A stretch of 64,000 bases of DNA from a phage. The notes beneath the pieces were generated by a model. The model did no database searches. It worked only from the letters and a program-made list of their open reading frames with translations, and was not told where the DNA came from. The position numbers and the translations under genes were made by a program. Below are positions 27,635 to 42,186 of the stretch, one piece after another. The DNA is taken from sequence record PZ154896.1. One strand, written 5' to 3'. Numbering within the stretch: the stretch's first letter is position 1; every line of letters begins with the position of its first letter.

Positions 27635-27943
27635 TCAATTAGAAAATAAATTTATCCAAGTTTTTTCTTTAATCAAAAATGGGTCGGAATTAAACGCCAT
27701 TAAACTTTGGGTGATTAATCCCTTAAATGGCCCATCAATAAATTCCATTTTGAAATGCGGAATACTAGTCATCAACCGTGCATTAGGAGCAGTACAAAGA
27801 ACCTGTTGACCTGCGAACGGACCTTTAGTCAAACGATATCGTTTAGGTTTAAAATGGTAAATCTCGTAATTTTCTACAAGAGCCCTTTTATTGCATACTG
27901 GGCTGTTATAACAATACTCAAAAACTTCAATAGTGGTCATCAT
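27635..27943 (-). CDS. hypothetical protein (vs.7 position)
   Basis: ORF trimmed to MMTTIEVF. Confidence 0.4.
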   Translation of the reverse strand: MMTTIEVFEYCYNSPVCNKRALVENYEIYHFKPKRYRLTKGPFAGQQVLCTAPNARLMTSIPHFKMEFIDGPFKGLITQSLMAFNSDPFLIKEKTWINLFSN

Positions 27944-28479
27944 TGCATTCCAATCACAAAAAATTGAGGACGAGCAATACCGCCGATGCAATATTTGCTT
28001 TTGCAGCAGTGCTGTACTGATTTAATATGGACATTGTAAATCTTATCCATATCAGGAGCTTTAATAGGCTCGTCAATTATATACAGAATACGAGAAAGCG
28101 TTAATCCACGGAATTTAGAACCTTCATTACCAATAAAACTACGGACAGAATCAGTAAATAAACGGAATCGAATATCATCGCTAGAATAACGAGAAAATTC
28201 TTTTTTAATGTTGCCAGCAGAAATTTTAGCATAAGCTGAAGTATTAGAAAGAACAATAACTGTTCCACCATCGAGCAGCCAATTAGCGGCAAAATTAGTT
28301 ACTGCAGTTGATTTACCAGATTGTCTGCCACCATCTAAACGAAGTGTACAGTACTGCTTGAGTACGTCTTCAAATGGTGGGGCATAACCGTTCTTACAAA
28401 TTTCTTCTACTCTAGCATCAGAATGGTGTGTAAAAGCATTCATCAGGGATAGATAAGGTCCAGTTAAAAATGTTCTCAT
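27940..28479 (-). CDS. small P-loop NTPase
   Basis: 179 aa; Walker A GGRQSGKST and Walker B ILYIIDEP. Confidence 0.5.
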   Translation of the reverse strand: MRTFLTGPYLSLMNAFTHHSDARVEEICKNGYAPPFEDVLKQYCTLRLDGGRQSGKSTAVTNFAANWLLDGGTVIVLSNTSAYAKISAGNIKKEFSRYSSDDIRFRLFTDSVRSFIGNEGSKFRGLTLSRILYIIDEPIKAPDMDKIYNVHIKSVQHCCKSKYCIGGIARPQFFVIGMQ

Positions 28480-28652
28480 TTAGTTTCTCTTAAGGTTGGG
28501 GCCATTCCGTGGCACATGTTAGGTCCTTCGACTCGCTATGTAAACCCATTACCGCACTTGGGCTCGACCTTATTACAGGTTGGAAAAGGTACATCACTTA
28601 GAAGACTCGAGGTTCATAAGGAGAGGTTGCGTTTCCCTTTATTAGGCAAGAA

Positions 28653-28982
28653 TTATACTCTAGGCTTTTGAGCTTGTTTGGTATTGGATTCCCATGCGGC
28701 TTTGGTAATTTTGTTAGCGGCATAACCAAAGGCATTAGATAGAACACCTTTAGAGTTGAATACATCCAATCCAATAAGTACACCTGCTGTGTTAAATTTA
28801 GGAGCAAAGTACGCATTAGTTTTAGAAAGAGCTTTTTTCAATTCAGGGTCTTGAACCAAGCCATCAAAAACGCCTTTACCATTTACTTTATATGTTACTT
28901 TGGGATTTTTAGCTTCTTCGATAGCAGCTTTCTGTTCCGCAGATAGTGTAACTTCAGTAATAAATTCTTGATAGGTTTTCAT
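28653..28982 (-). CDS. internal-protein-like capsid-targeted protein (IP family)
   Basis: starts MKTYQEFITE (capsid targeting sequence, IxE cleavage motif); 109 aa. Confidence 0.65.
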   Translation of the reverse strand: MKTYQEFITEVTLSAEQKAAIEEAKNPKVTYKVNGKGVFDGLVQDPELKKALSKTNAYFAPKFNTAGVLIGLDVFNSKGVLSNAFGYAANKITKAAWESNTKQAQKPRV

Positions 28983-29043
28983 TTTGTTCTCTCTAGGTTT
29001 AGACCATTCCATGGCCCATGAATTGTCCATTTTCCGTATTTAC

Positions 29044-29093
29044 CACTCCAAGTAATTATGAATATACTATCACAATTCTAGGAGAAAGTAAAC
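29044..29093 (-). promoter_or_regulatory. PeSL-like early promoter cassette
   Basis: rc: GTTTAC, CTCC/GGAG inverted repeat around TAGTAT. Confidence 0.5.
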
Positions 29094-29095
29094 TG

Positions 29096-29398
29096 TTATT
29101 TACCTTTAATTACTTTAGCTGCTTCGATAGCCGCTTGCTGAAGGTCGTCCATAGACATACCGAATTTAGAAGCAAAGTTATCAATTTTCTTTTCGACCGC
29201 ATTCAAAGGCTTGGCCTGTTTACCTTCATTAGCGCCTGGAAGAGCGAGAATACGCTCTTTGTCAATATAAAGGCTTACAAGTTTCTTACGGTCTTTATCG
29301 GACAAATCATGAAATGAATGGGCCTTTTTATTTATAGCGGCTTCTAATTTACCTGCGCTCACTCGCGCTTCAGTAATAAATTCTTGATATGTTTTCAT
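29096..29398 (-). CDS. ipII: internal protein II-like
   Basis: 100 aa; starts MKTYQEFITEA; size matches T4 IPII. Confidence 0.6.
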   Translation of the reverse strand: MKTYQEFITEARVSAGKLEAAINKKAHSFHDLSDKDRKKLVSLYIDKERILALPGANEGKQAKPLNAVEKKIDNFASKFGMSMDDLQQAAIEAAKVIKGK

Positions 29399-29439
29399 AT
29401 GTTTCCTTTAAATGTAAATAGGCCTAAATATAGGCCTTA

Positions 29440-30018
29440 TTAATTACCACGGGCTGCATTAGCAACGGCATAAGCGTACTGAACATTAGCGTCTTTAAAC
29501 GTACCTTTAGAGGTATCTATTTCTGCCTTAAAGCCGCCTTTAGCCATAACATCGGCAAATTCTTTACGGAAAGCCATTGCATCAAGACCTTTCCATGATG
29601 ATTTGTGCTTGGCGAATTCAAGACCAGCGTAGTTGACAGCCTTAGCTAATTTATTATCAATAACCCATTTACCGGCTTTAGGCACAAACTTCGGTCCTTT
29701 TTGTTTAGAGAACAGTTTTAAATTCCAGCGACGAAGATCACTGTCGGCTTTAACAAAAGCTGCATCTAAGTTACTAGCAACAACATCTTCAATATGAGCA
29801 AATTTAAGTCCGTCAACTTCAATATTTAGATCGTTACGCCAGCGAAGTCCTTCCCAAGCGAAGGCTTTAAAATCAGAAGCTTTTGTGGCTAGATATCGTT
29901 CAAGTGGAGCAGTTTTAGGGTCAAAGCCGTTTCCGCCACGATAAGTCCACTCGTCCTTATTAATGCCTTGAGCTTTTCCTGCAAAGGCCTCGGCGATAAA
30001 TTCTTTATATGTTTTCAT
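29440..30018 (-). CDS. ipIII: internal protein III-like
   Basis: 192 aa; starts MKTYKEFIAEA; size matches T4 IPIII. Confidence 0.6.
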   Translation of the reverse strand: MKTYKEFIAEAFAGKAQGINKDEWTYRGGNGFDPKTAPLERYLATKASDFKAFAWEGLRWRNDLNIEVDGLKFAHIEDVVASNLDAAFVKADSDLRRWNLKLFSKQKGPKFVPKAGKWVIDNKLAKAVNYAGLEFAKHKSSWKGLDAMAFRKEFADVMAKGGFKAEIDTSKGTFKDANVQYAYAVANAARGN

Positions 30019-30036
30019 TTTTGTTTCCTTGTTTGT

Positions 30037-30078
30037 TTTGATAGAGTAATTATACCATATTAATACTTAAGCGTAAAC
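30037..30078 (-). promoter_or_regulatory. early promoter cassette
   Basis: rc: GTTTAC-N18-TATAAT. Confidence 0.55.
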
Positions 30079-30081
30079 TGT

Positions 30082-30342
30082 TTAAGCTTTACCGCCGGAA
30101 ATAATTCCGAAGTTGTTAAAATCGTATCCAATATCGTCAACATCTACTTTAGGGCTTGCTACAACATAAGCAATTTCACTACGTTTTGCATAGGTGTTGA
30201 TTTCTTTACCATCGCCACCTAAGAAAAAATACCCATTACGTTTTAATGAGCCAAAGTCTTCCGCATCACCAATGAAAGCTTTAACTTTAAATTTAGGACC
30301 TTTGGCATCTGCTTCAGCGATAAATTCTTGATACATTTTCAT
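30082..30342 (-). CDS. internal-protein-like capsid-targeted protein
   Basis: 86 aa; starts MKMYQEFIAEA. Confidence 0.6.
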   Translation of the reverse strand: MKMYQEFIAEADAKGPKFKVKAFIGDAEDFGSLKRNGYFFLGGDGKEINTYAKRSEIAYVVASPKVDVDDIGYDFNNFGIISGGKA

Positions 30343-30348
30343 TTTTCC

Positions 30349-30762
30349 TTAGTAAATTGATTTACCATAGTATTTGTACCAAGTAGGGCGCTGAGCAATT
30401 TTTTCATCTAAGCGTGCTTGACTTATCGCAATGGACGCTTCGGACGGGACATAATTATTACGAAATTCGGCAGGGATGTCGGAAATATCTTGGACAGTTG
30501 TGTCCTTGATTTTGAAACCACGTTTCAAGCATTCAGCGATTAACTCGATTTGACGTAAACGTAAAAATTCGAGTTTGTCGTAAAAGAATGTTACATGACC
30601 TGTGCCTAAGATAAATGTTGGAGAGATTTTAAAATCCTTTACACGTTTACCGTTTTGAACATGTTTACGGACTGCACCAAATACGCGTGGTAATTCACGA
30701 TACTCTGCCATAAGATGTTGGTCGGTCAGTTCAGAAACAAGTGTTAAATTGATACGAGTCAT
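30349..30762 (-). CDS. denV: endonuclease V (pyrimidine-dimer DNA glycosylase)
   Basis: start [12 protein letters not shown]; near-colinear by recall with T4 DenV; 137 aa. Confidence 0.9.
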
Positions 30763-30766
30763 AATT

Positions 30767-30819
30767 TCCTCCAAGTAGTTGATGAATGTATAGTATCAAA
30801 GTCCTTGGAGGAAGTAAAC
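30767..30819 (-). promoter_or_regulatory. PeSL-like cassette upstream of denV
   Basis: rc: GTTTAC; inverted repeat CCTCCAAGG/CTTGGAGG, 3' arm contains the denV SD. Confidence 0.55.
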
Positions 30820-30820
30820 A

Positions 30821-31102
30821 CTATTTTTCTGAAGCGCCTGAAATATATTTTTCAAGACGTTGTTTCATCAGCGAGCCGTTCTTAGCGATTTCTTCCGGTT
30901 TATCGCACATACGTAACAAGGCTTCAAGCTTAACGATATCACTGGTGCGCTCAAATTTGCGAGTATCTATCTTACTAGCAAGTTCAGAAATACGTGCTAA
31001 TAGACTTTCAGCTTCAACCAAAGCTGCACCTAGCTTAGTTGCAAATGTGTCAGTAGCTTCGTTAAGAATAGATTCTGATAAAAATTCACTATATGTTTTC
31101 AT
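30821..31102 (-). CDS. internal-protein-like capsid-targeted protein
   Basis: starts [10 protein letters not shown]; ATG overlaps gene e stop (ATGA). Confidence 0.6.
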
Positions 31103-31587
31103 ATATACGCTTTCCAAGTTCCTGTTTTAAATGTTGAGATTACGCGTTTCGCGCGATTAGGTGTCTGACGATACCATTTAGATTGGGCTAGATTTACTGC
31201 CGCTTCGTCCCAACGTTTCTGTTGAAGCATACGAAGAGAATTAGTAAAACCAGCGACGCCTGCTACACCCATTTGGAAGACCATATTGACCAATGCACAT
31301 CGACGAACTGCATCTAAAGAATCATATACCGGTTTAAGTTTAGCATTACCCAAGATTCCGCGTACGGCTTTATCAACGTCTTCATTAAATAACTTTTCGG
31401 CCTCATCAAGGGTAATTGTACCGTTGCATTTACGTCCGATCATTCTGTCAAGTTCAGCTTTAGCTACGGCTAAAGACGGGTTCTTTGTTACTAAATGGCC
31501 TATGCCAATCGTCCAAAAGCCTTCAGTGTCTTTGTATAAAGTCAGTCTAAGACCTTCGTCATTACGAAGCATTTCAAATATATTCAT
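31099..31587 (-). CDS. e: endolysin (T4 lysozyme)
   Basis: start MNIFEMLR; catalytic region ...DEGLRL.IYKDTEG...TIGIGHL; 162 aa. Confidence 0.92.
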
Positions 31588-31589
31588 AA

Positions 31590-31613
31590 TACCTCCCACA
31601 TTTATAGGAGGTA
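31590..31613 (-). promoter_or_regulatory. gene e late promoter inside an SD-sequestering hairpin
   Basis: minus strand reads ACCTCC-TATAAATG-tg-GGAGGT-att-ATG. Confidence 0.6.
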
Positions 31614-31621
31614 TTTATTAC

Positions 31622-32080
31622 TTATAGAAGGGTAGTGAGCACCTTATATAATGATTTGCCCATTACATATTCCCATTGAGAAGGTTTAATTAAAGCGAAT
31701 GCATCAAATTCAGGAATCTGTCGTCCGTCTGGGAACGTATGATAGGAATTACAAACACTGTTTCTGAATTGCTCGTGCTCTACAGGGATGGTATATAGGA
31801 ACAGATGAATATTCTTATTGTCTGAGTAATGATGTTCACCTAGGTCTTTCAGGAAGGCAGGGTCATATTGTGTAAACCCAGTTTCTTCTTCGCATTCACG
31901 AATAGCTGCTTCAATAGGAGATTCACCGGGCTCGACACGACCTTTAGGAATATCCCACCGATGAGCTAAAGAACCTTTAGGACGAGAACCAGTTACACGG
32001 CCCATGAATAACTCTTTATCTTTTGTCATGAAGATAATACCAGCTGATAGCTCTTTCACTTTATTTTTCTTACTCATCAT
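31622..32080 (-). CDS. nudE: Nudix hydrolase
   Basis: Nudix box GRVEPGESPIEAAIRECEEETGF; start taken at MMSKKNK. Confidence 0.75.
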   Translation of the reverse strand: MMSKKNKVKELSAGIIFMTKDKELFMGRVTGSRPKGSLAHRWDIPKGRVEPGESPIEAAIRECEEETGFTQYDPAFLKDLGEHHYSDNKNIHLFLYTIPVEHEQFRNSVCNSYHTFPDGRQIPEFDAFALIKPSQWEYVMGKSLYKVLTTLL

Positions 32081-32568
32081 CTCAAATTCCTGCATTCGGT
32101 AATAAAACGTTCAACTTCATTATTCTTGGCTTTTATCTTGTCTTTATGTTCTTGTAAACTACTTTTAATAAGATTAATAATGATGGCGGCGGTACCGCCG
32201 CCAATGATGCCACCAACAACACTTATGATACTAGATGCTAATAAGATAGCAATAATATCAACAAAACCGAAAGAACTCACCTTAGTACTGAAAAACCATA
32301 TAGACGGTACAAATATAATCCATCCTGTTATCCATTGGCACTTATTGAAAAACCTTTCAAGCTCAGCTTGAGTTGTTCGTATTACTTCATCGATAGGTTG
32401 ATATCCATTAATGTATCTGTTCACGATAATACCTGCTGGCTGGTCGATTTTAAATTCTTGGCAAATATTTTTCACTAAGTAGGATGGACATCCTGTCCAA
32501 TCTACTGAATAGTATGAAATACCTTCATTGCCATCGTCTATATTAGACCAATATGTTTTGTTAATCAT
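32077..32568 (-). CDS. membrane protein with C-terminal ERFITECR tail (FIKECR family)
   Basis: 163 aa; hydrophobic segments; conserved C-terminal tail. Confidence 0.5.
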   Translation of the reverse strand: MINKTYWSNIDDGNEGISYYSVDWTGCPSYLVKNICQEFKIDQPAGIIVNRYINGYQPIDEVIRTTQAELERFFNKCQWITGWIIFVPSIWFFSTKVSSFGFVDIIAILLASSIISVVGGIIGGGTAAIIINLIKSSLQEHKDKIKAKNNEVERFITECRNLR

Positions 32569-40199: not shown

Positions 40200-40276
<77 letters not shown>

Positions 40277-40279
40277 GAT

Positions 40280-40354
40280 TGGTGACCCTGGCTGGTTTCG
40301 ATCCAGCTACCTATCAGTTATGAGCTGACAGCTCTCCCATTGAGCTACAGGGCC
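40280..40354 (-). tRNA. tRNA-Met/Ile (anticodon CAT)
   Basis: hand-folded cloverleaf: acceptor GGCCCTG/CAGGGTC, D-arm GCTCAATGGGAGAGC, anticodon loop CTCATAA, encoded CCA; 3 nt from tRNA-Arg. Confidence 0.7.
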
Positions 40355-41877: not shown

Positions 41878-42186
41878 CTATTTTATTCCACGTGATGCAA
41901 TCGTATTCTGCCGTTTAACGCCAGTTTGTTTAAAGTCATGACTGTCGATTTGATCGGTACGAGCAACTCCGAACGATGATTTAATCTTAGCTTTAGATCC
42001 TTTAGTTATAGAAATAAACATCTCAGAGGACCCTTTCTTAAAGTCTGATGCAGATACTTCAACGCCGTTCTTAGCAAGTGACCTCAGAATTGCATCTGCG
42101 TACTCATCATCAAGACTCGCTTGAGTATTAATAACGAATGTCTTTGGCGCAGCTGCTTCACAGATAAATTCTTTAAATGTTTTCAT
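41878..42186 (-). CDS. internal protein at the ipI locus (IPI-like, divergent)
   Basis: 102 aa; starts MKTFKEFICEA; immediately upstream of 57B as ipI is in T4. Confidence 0.6.
   Translation of the reverse strand: MKTFKEFICEAAAPKTFVINTQASLDDEYADAILRSLAKNGVEVSASDFKKGSSEMFISITKGSKAKIKSSFGVARTDQIDSHDFKQTGVKRQNTIASRGIK

Follow-up and report, generated by a model that had tools for sequence, protein, structure and literature searches.

The internal proteins (IPs) of phage T4 are small, non-essential proteins with unrelated mature domains that share an N-terminal capsid-targeting sequence (CTS), in which residue 4 is Y or F, residue 7 is F, residue 8 is I or L and residue 10 is E. Two highly polymorphic IP loci, with an 11-residue leader and with repeated flanks that mediate shuffling, were reportedly described by Repoila, Tetart, Bouet and Krisch in 1994. 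At least 10 Ip genes were identified through their N-terminal signal sequence by Repoila et al. 1994, as cited by Silas et al. 2025 (PMC12373910), and Rao & Black 2010 (PMC3012670) cite the same study for highly diverse Ips that share only a conserved CTS. In T4 IPIII the first 10 residues suffice for head targeting, and gp21 cuts after L/I-x-E (PMC9026906, PMC3012670); targeting depends on residues 4 and 7, and gp21 processing at this motif on residues 8 and 10 (PMC9026906). About 360 copies of each T4 IP are packaged and ejected with the DNA (PMC9026906, PMC3012670). The published Ips have mutually unrelated mature domains; the targets of Ip1, Ip2 and Ip3 are GmrSD type IV enzymes, a different one inhibited by each, and the same role has been proposed for the Ips of the two loci (Silas et al. 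2025, PMC12373910). In sequence record PZ154896.1, a phage stretch of 64,000 nucleotides that is referred to as a whole as the window, five genes with this type of leader occupy the interval between the endolysin gene e and vs.8, the same slot as in T4. We consider it about 85% probable that this interval is one of a known pair of hypervariable IP loci in T-even phages, in which a CTS is joined to unrelated mature domains, the products are injected, and the genes are shuffled as cassettes.

The window originates from a Mosigvirus, a T4-like phage of the family Straboviridae. The locus is 98.4% identical to that of Shigella phage phi25-307 and was matched by 911 phage records. Every gene of the region lies on the minus strand. 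In transcription order, with CTS1 and CTS4 as working names, the genes are:

31622-32095, minus strand: nudE, first in the transcription order of the region
31099-31587, minus strand: e, endolysin (PF00959, E=7.5e-14)
30821-31102, minus strand: Ip5 homologue, 93 residues, following e
30349-30762, minus strand: denV, endonuclease V, a pyrimidine-dimer glycosylase (PF03013, 3.3e-14; phrog_1183, 1.5e-62)
30082-30342, minus strand: CTS4, 86 residues, MKMYQEFIAE, following denV
29440-30018, minus strand: ipIII orthologue, 192 residues, MKTYKEFIAE, following CTS4
29096-29398, minus strand: ipII orthologue, 100 residues, MKTYQEFITE, following ipIII
28653-28982, minus strand: CTS1, 109 residues, MKTYQEFITE, following ipII
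27940-28479, minus strand: vs.8, last in the transcription order of the region

An earlier annotation made from the letters alone (the sequence-only reading) had proposed five CTS-bearing open reading frames (ORFs) here, with denV embedded among them and one ORF overlapping gene e, and these observations held. All five ORFs were found on the minus strand at the proposed positions. The PF03013 gene denV, which is not itself an IP gene, sits between Ip5 and CTS4 and separates two IP slots. At 31102-31099 the letters ATGA were read, in which the stop codon of e (TGA) overlaps the Ip5 ATG, an arrangement compatible with translational coupling. It was also correctly stated that T4 has only ipII and ipIII at this locus. 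The T4 order is e-ipIII-ipII-denV-vs.8; the window has five IP genes instead of two, and denV lies between them rather than after them. The description of an expanded and rearranged array was borne out. The array is larger than that of T4 and reordered relative to it, but it is not unusual: in Mosigvirus, Gaprivervirus and Dhakavirus, expanded arrays that enclose denV are usual, and they carry such annotation. The GenBank entry of VR25, a Gaprivervirus, reads e-ip5-denV-ip10-IHP-ip7-vs.8 (IHP, 'internal head protein'), Dhakavirus WG01 has the order e-ORF118(CTS)-IPIII-denV-ORF115(CTS)-ORF114(CTS)-vs.8, and the RB32 annotation carries the remark 'flanked by 43 bp direct repeat'. The orders in T4, VR25, WG01 and the window therefore describe two IP slots, one from e to denV and one from denV to vs.8, that are filled differently by lineage. 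Polymorphic T-even IP loci (Ip4-Ip13-type; T2, T6, RB32, VR25) likewise vary in the number, order and identity of their genes and have a conserved leader and shuffling flanks. The window has Ip5 and Ip7 homologues of this series, its closest relative has Ip10, and it differs from the series only in its particular combination of cassettes and in CTS1, which is not named as an Ip among the records listed.

The ORFs begin with MK(T/M)Y(Q/K/S)EF(I/L)xE, and all five agree at M1, K2, Y4, E6, F7 and E10; residues 8-10 read ITE, ITE, IAE, IAE and LSE across the five genes, a gp21-type L/I-x-E motif in each case. The proposed 10-residue CTS with its (I/L)xE motif was thus confirmed at all five starts, and the functional positions 4, 7, 8 and 10 of the T4 CTS are kept in every one. 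In a six-frame scan of the 64-kb window the motif was found at these five starts and at only one other ORF, which is the sixth CTS gene of the window:

41878-42186, minus strand: Ip7 homologue, 102 residues, MKTFKEFICE, at the second IP locus (the ipI locus), directly downstream of 57B

This protein is 93% identical to RB32 Ip7, and residue 4 of its CTS is Phe where the five locus genes have Tyr. By synteny with T4 and phi25-307, the six CTS genes fall within two IP loci (e...vs.8 and 57B...trna.4), and the place held by IPI in T4 and RB69 is therefore taken by Ip7 in this phage.

The resemblance among the five genes extends to their DNA. A 23-nt consensus, ATGAAAACATATCAAGAATTTAT, had five matches in the window at no more than three mismatches, against 0.00 expected from 100 dinucleotide-preserving shuffles; four of the matches are within the locus and one is at 42186. 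The first 30 nt are identical at 24-29 of 30 positions among four of the genes and at 21-23 of 30 between the Ip5 gene, which has the most diverged CTS-coding DNA, and the others. Over the 30 nt that follow the CTS-coding part, identity falls to 5-14 of 30, which is background. The near-identical 5' DNA of the sequence-only reading was recovered independently in an unbiased repeat search, which returned a 41-nt direct-repeat family, D1, with five copies placed exactly at the five starts. Each copy spans the ribosome-binding site (RBS) and the CTS-coding sequence:

31073-31113, minus strand: D1 copy at the Ip5 start
30313-30353, minus strand: D1 copy at the CTS4 start
29989-30029, minus strand: D1 copy at the ipIII start
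29369-29409, minus strand: D1 copy at the ipII start
28953-28993, minus strand: D1 copy at the CTS1 start

The CTS variants also track the adjacent genes: IPII and CTS1 share ITE (T4 IPII has IAE), and IPIII and Ip10 share K5. Because the variants match those of neighbouring genes, crossovers or gene conversion within the leader are suggested.

Past the leader the five proteins are unrelated to one another. Their mature parts measure 76-182 residues, and cross-similarity between mature domains gave z <4 in all pairs. Two are T4 orthologues at 93-94% mature identity, namely IPII (84 of 90 mature residues identical to T4 IPII; phrog_7857, 4.5e-55) and IPIII (167 of 178 identical to T4 IPIII; phrog_5341, 1.8e-117). 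The Ip5 protein is 88% identical to VR25 Ip5 and 48% identical to RB32 Ip5, with T2 ip5 at the same level; it belongs to phrog_3499, 'internal head protein' (1.2e-46), and was itself found in 497 phage records; the RB32 annotation already names 'RB69ORF127c' as an Ip5 homologue. CTS4, with a mature part of 76 residues (isoelectric point, pI, 6.4), was found in 217 phage records, was assigned to phrog_2667, 'internal head protein' (4.8e-20), and is 73% identical to VR25 gp125, annotated 'internal head protein'; the family is narrow and confined to T4-like phages. CTS1, with a mature part of 99 residues (pI 9.7), was found in 91 phage records and falls in phrog_3966, 'unknown function'. The identification of the genes as CTS-type internal-protein genes was accordingly upheld, with two orthologues (IPII and IPIII), one Ip5 and one member of PHROG 2667.

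Evidence that the genes behave as cassettes was obtained from a comparison of the locus in seven relatives (92-98% identical). Each relative carries four to six of the set Ip5, CTS4, Ip10, IPIII, IPII and CTS1:

phi25-307: all five cassettes of the window, and Ip10
S143_2: without IPII; Ip10 present
PNJ-6: without IPIII
VIPECOMC06: without CTS4 and IPII; Ip10 present
mogra: without CTS1
JoYop: without CTS1
W143: without CTS1; Ip10 present

Ip5 is the sole IP gene kept at the locus in all seven; for each of IPII, IPIII, CTS1, CTS4 and Ip10 there is a close relative, or more than one, that lacks the gene. In pairwise alignments, three insertion/deletion differences (indels) place their breakpoints inside the CTS-coding repeats:

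Ip10 indel: 341 bp, at 15 exactly repeated nt, AACAAAAATGAAAAC, that form part of a longer repeat (about 40 nt)
IPII indel: 416 bp, window 29389..28974, at a 22-nt exact repeat, TATCAAGAATTTATTACTGAAG
IPIII indel: 620 bp, window 30018..29399, at a 12-nt exact repeat, ATGAAAACATAT

As judged from these alignments, indels that end in CTS-coding repeats are the direct footprint of cassette exchange, and the three presence/absence polymorphisms support the proposal that the shared 5' DNA is a substrate for it. In the mechanism envisaged, the RBS and CTS repeat of 30-40 nt, together with repeated promoter or leader segments between the genes, would act as portable homology, and recombination within these repeats would add, delete and reshuffle whole cassettes, so that related phages would carry different subsets of the same cassettes. 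How such movement may proceed is illustrated by the breakpoints, at which 12-22 nt within the CTS-coding repeat are identical. No record in a searched collection of 50,697 phage genomes covers 28400-31700 contiguously. The best, phi25-307, has the extra Ip10, and the others lack at least one cassette, so the combination in the window is unseen in the collection; this is the expected outcome of such shuffling and is unremarkable.

Earlier publications already cover the locus type, the logic of the CTS, the shuffling of cassettes and the anti-restriction hypothesis, and hundreds of GenBank phages carry these genes. The small additions made here are the exact breakpoint footprints, the recognition of CTS1 as a CTS protein behind a mis-called RefSeq start, and a list of four putative injected effectors in a phage with arabinose-modified DNA. 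The steps established for T4 IPI-III would apply to the window proteins as follows. The CTS would bind the gp22-based scaffolding core during prohead assembly, the gp21 prohead protease would cut after Glu10 of the I/L-x-E motif, and hundreds of mature copies would stay in the head and be injected with the DNA. The genes for the head protease, scaffold and core (gp21, gp22, gp67, gp68) are encoded by phi25-307.

With regard to function, the sequence-only reading had treated IPI* as the one characterized case. That statement is outdated, because Ip1, Ip2 and Ip3 have each been shown to inhibit a GmrSD (targets of Ip2 and Ip3: PMC12373910, PMC9391042) and an McrBC inhibitor has been reported (bioRxiv 2025.11.20.689424). 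The Ip2 and Ip3 targets and this McrBC inhibitor were assigned only recently. On ECOR17 the phage depends on IPIII, and a plasmid-borne IPIII that lacks the CTS is active in trans (PMC9391042). The McrBC inhibitor is Bas37_0260, a CTS protein that phage Bas37 encodes at its ipI locus (bioRxiv 2025.11.20.689424), and the targets of Ips are therefore not limited to GmrSD. Like the window proteins, it is an orphan that carries a CTS and is encoded in an IP locus. It counteracts type IV restriction and has 77 residues by gene length, and it is compared here by its description and gene coordinates. An analogy, and no more than that, may be drawn with the Dar system of phage P1 (PMC12810830), in which capsid-internal proteins are injected with the DNA against restriction; its proteins are unrelated, follow a DarA/Hdf-dependent packaging hierarchy and are not known to have a T4-type CTS.

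Given the 93-94% identity, it is a reasonable inference that IPII and IPIII of the window share the GmrSD-inhibitor functions of their T4 counterparts. For Ip5, CTS4 and CTS1 the best guess, and the most likely one by analogy, is that they would be further injected inhibitors of type IV enzymes that attack modified DNA. Mosigvirus DNA contains arabinosylated cytosine and is cleaved by GmrSD-family enzymes (PMC13390438, PMC6024577), and cutting of arabinosylated DNA has been shown for BrxU/GmrSD variants (PMC13390438), whereas T4 has glucosylated cytosine; the modification is taken here from the Mosigvirus literature. A narrower proposal, that CTS1 is a previously unrecognized IP family and, together with CTS4 and the Mosigvirus Ip5, a candidate injected inhibitor of type IV restriction enzymes, or of some other first-response defence, with specific recognition of arabinosylated-cytosine DNA, is put forward tentatively and may well prove wrong. 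If it were true, the arabinosylated-cytosine-specific target class would differ from the known targets of T4 Ip1-3. The practical value of the locus is a list of candidate effectors (Ip5, CTS4, CTS1 and Ip7) in a phage genus whose DNA modification is unlike that of T4.

The strongest of the alternatives gives the extra CTS proteins a mainly structural or physical part, in scaffold-core assembly, DNA condensation or charge neutralization, instead of one in anti-defence. T4 mutants lacking IPIII, or all three IPs, give more aberrant polyheads, and the IPs of T4 are basic proteins with affinity for DNA at low salt (PMC9026906); IPII, IPIII and CTS1 are likewise basic here (pI 9.6-9.7). CTS4 and Ip5, however, are near-neutral (pI 6.3-6.4). 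Since IPII, IPIII, CTS1, CTS4 and Ip10 are each missing from some close relative, none of these is needed for assembly. T4 Ips are, moreover, non-essential and have specific restriction-enzyme targets (PMC12373910, PMC9391042), and the activity of IPIII from a plasmid without its CTS (PMC9391042) is at odds with a purely structural role. A mainly structural role is therefore considered unlikely.

Several observations weigh against the interpretation as a shuffled locus of injected anti-defence proteins. The near-neutral pI of CTS4 and Ip5 that counts against a structural role also sets these two apart from the basic IPII and IPIII. None of the six CTS proteins had an above-threshold match in Pfam, NCBIfam or PADLOC; the marginal matches, all to IPII and below threshold, were weak ones to DUF7412, PbeC and ATP-synthase-delta. 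CTS1, CTS4 and Ip5 gave only chance-level matches when compared with PDB sequences. The AlphaFold2 model of CTS1 was unreliable, with a predicted local distance difference test score (pLDDT) of 55.5. That of CTS4, from an eight-sequence alignment, had a small alpha/beta fold (pLDDT 67.4), and its best Foldseek match in the PDB had an E of 0.5, none reaching 0.001 or below at a model pLDDT of 67; the IPI* fold, solved for T4 IPI by NMR, was not among the top matches, which at this pLDDT is a weak test. The window ends at the gp15 region, outside gp21 and gp22, and those genes were seen in phi25-307 only. Four CTS4 relatives in the protein database (P0005, P0008, P0009 and P0010) are truncated, frameshifted or internally deleted; these may be assembly errors, or some cassettes may be decaying in some phages. 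Promoter and terminator calls in the region did not exceed the counts in shuffled sequence. Finally, packaging, processing and anti-defence activity of Ip5, CTS4 and CTS1 are matters we infer, and they cannot be read from the sequence alone.

A second alternative is that at least one of the five ORFs is a remnant without function or lacks the tag; for instance, CTS1 might truly begin at the ATG at 29030, with the CTS buried inside the protein. The RefSeq annotation of phi25-307 begins the CTS1 homologue at this position, 16 codons upstream (378 nt, L001 2754-3131), one protein cluster (P0002) has a 125-residue form of CTS1, and the truncated CTS4 variants are in keeping with such a view. The DNA upstream of CTS1 tells against it. 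The 16-codon extension comes from a diverged copy of the vs.8 leader and is not a conserved coding region, and a second copy lies on the other side of the gene:

28983-29040 (approximate), minus strand: diverged duplicate of the vs.8 leader, left flank of the CTS1 cassette (from alignment with mogra, JoYop and W143, and with the T4 Vs.8 N-terminus)
28480-28652, minus strand: CTS1-vs.8 spacer, which with the second copy of the vs.8 leader forms the right flank of the CTS1 cassette

Pieces of the N-terminal extension that T4 Vs.8 carries (41 codons) survive in the spacer with their frames shifted (QPVIRSSPSAVMG in one frame, CHGMA in another), and the vs.8 ORF of the window begins at the Met equivalent to T4 M42. 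Because a second, diverged copy lies upstream of CTS1, the vs.8 leader forms a direct repeat around this cassette, whose flanks differ in kind from those of the other indels. A structured RNA or tRNA was considered for the 173-nt spacer and rejected, since no tRNA and no Rfam match was found there; what lies there is the decayed 5' part of vs.8.

Comparison of homologues points the same way. The only distant relative of CTS1, ORF115 of Dhakavirus WG01 (36% identical), which occupies the same denV-vs.8 slot, begins directly with MKTYQQFITE. In S143_2, PNJ-6 and VIPECOMC06 the 330-nt form of CTS1 is annotated, and about 77 genomes conserve CTS1 at 96-99%. CTS4 of the window is full length, with a mature part 96% identical to P0003. 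On these grounds the RefSeq upstream start of CTS1 is judged to be spurious and to hide the CTS. RefSeq also begins the CTS4 homologue of phi25-307 at Met3 (MYQEF...; L001 4524-4778), and the CTS nature of both CTS1 and CTS4 was obscured by these mis-called starts, the one at an upstream ATG and the other at Met3. Remnant or untagged genes are thus very improbable in the window, and tagged, intact cassettes are preferred; the corrected CTS1 start is a small annotation correction.

CTS1 was labelled 'hypothetical protein' in all annotated records among the matches listed. A word-indexed homologue search with its mature part returned only two near-identical clusters. Exhaustive HMMER searches gave two short full-length relatives, P0001 (97%, its own family) and P0020 (119 residues, 33%, a true distant family). 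The remaining 11 matches were partial and multi-stretch, lay in proteins of 289-3,699 residues and were judged compositional. The family is therefore narrow, phage-only and within T4-like phages. Membership of PHROG 3966 had hinted that CTS1 might be a remote homologue of Ip10, and this candidate was rejected at an hhalign probability of 0.3%.

A third alternative would attribute the shared N-termini to chance or to the composition of an AT-rich genome. Only the AT-rich codon usage of the CTS motif speaks for it, and it is refuted for practical purposes by the absence of any match in 100 shuffles against five observed and by the restriction of the motif to ORF starts within the two known IP loci.

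Signals that might govern expression of the IP genes were also located, and they are suggestive only:

30789-30819, minus strand: early-promoter-like element, GTTTAC...TATACTATA, after ip5 and before denV; repeat family D6
30049-30077, minus strand: sigma-70/T4-early-type promoter-like element, TTTACG-17-(TG)TATAAT, before ipIII; 10 of 12 consensus positions, the best of the region
29420-29437, minus strand: GC-rich hairpin with a T-rich tail, terminator-like, between ipIII and ipII
29063-29093, minus strand: early-promoter-like element, second D6 copy, GTTTACTTTCTCCTAGAATTGTGATAGTATA (GTTTAC...TATAGTATA), after ipII and before CTS1

Three early-promoter-like elements of the form GTTTAC-N17-TAnnnT are thus placed before denV, ipIII and CTS1, and a near-consensus late-promoter-like cTATAAATg lies just upstream of e. 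The two D6 copies (29063-29093 and 30789-30819) form a 31-nt direct repeat of 81% identity, which may serve as a second kind of portable recombination flank.

Two further observations concern the surroundings. The tRNA region at 40200-40354 (minus strand) holds only two tRNA genes in the window, tRNA-Arg tct and tRNA-Met cat, by ARAGORN and Rfam. The ribosome-binding region of denV at 30763-30775 (minus strand), TGGAGGAAATT-ATG, holds GGAG, the target motif of the RegB endoribonuclease, while the five IP genes have GGAA- or GAGA-type ribosome-binding sites and no GGAG.

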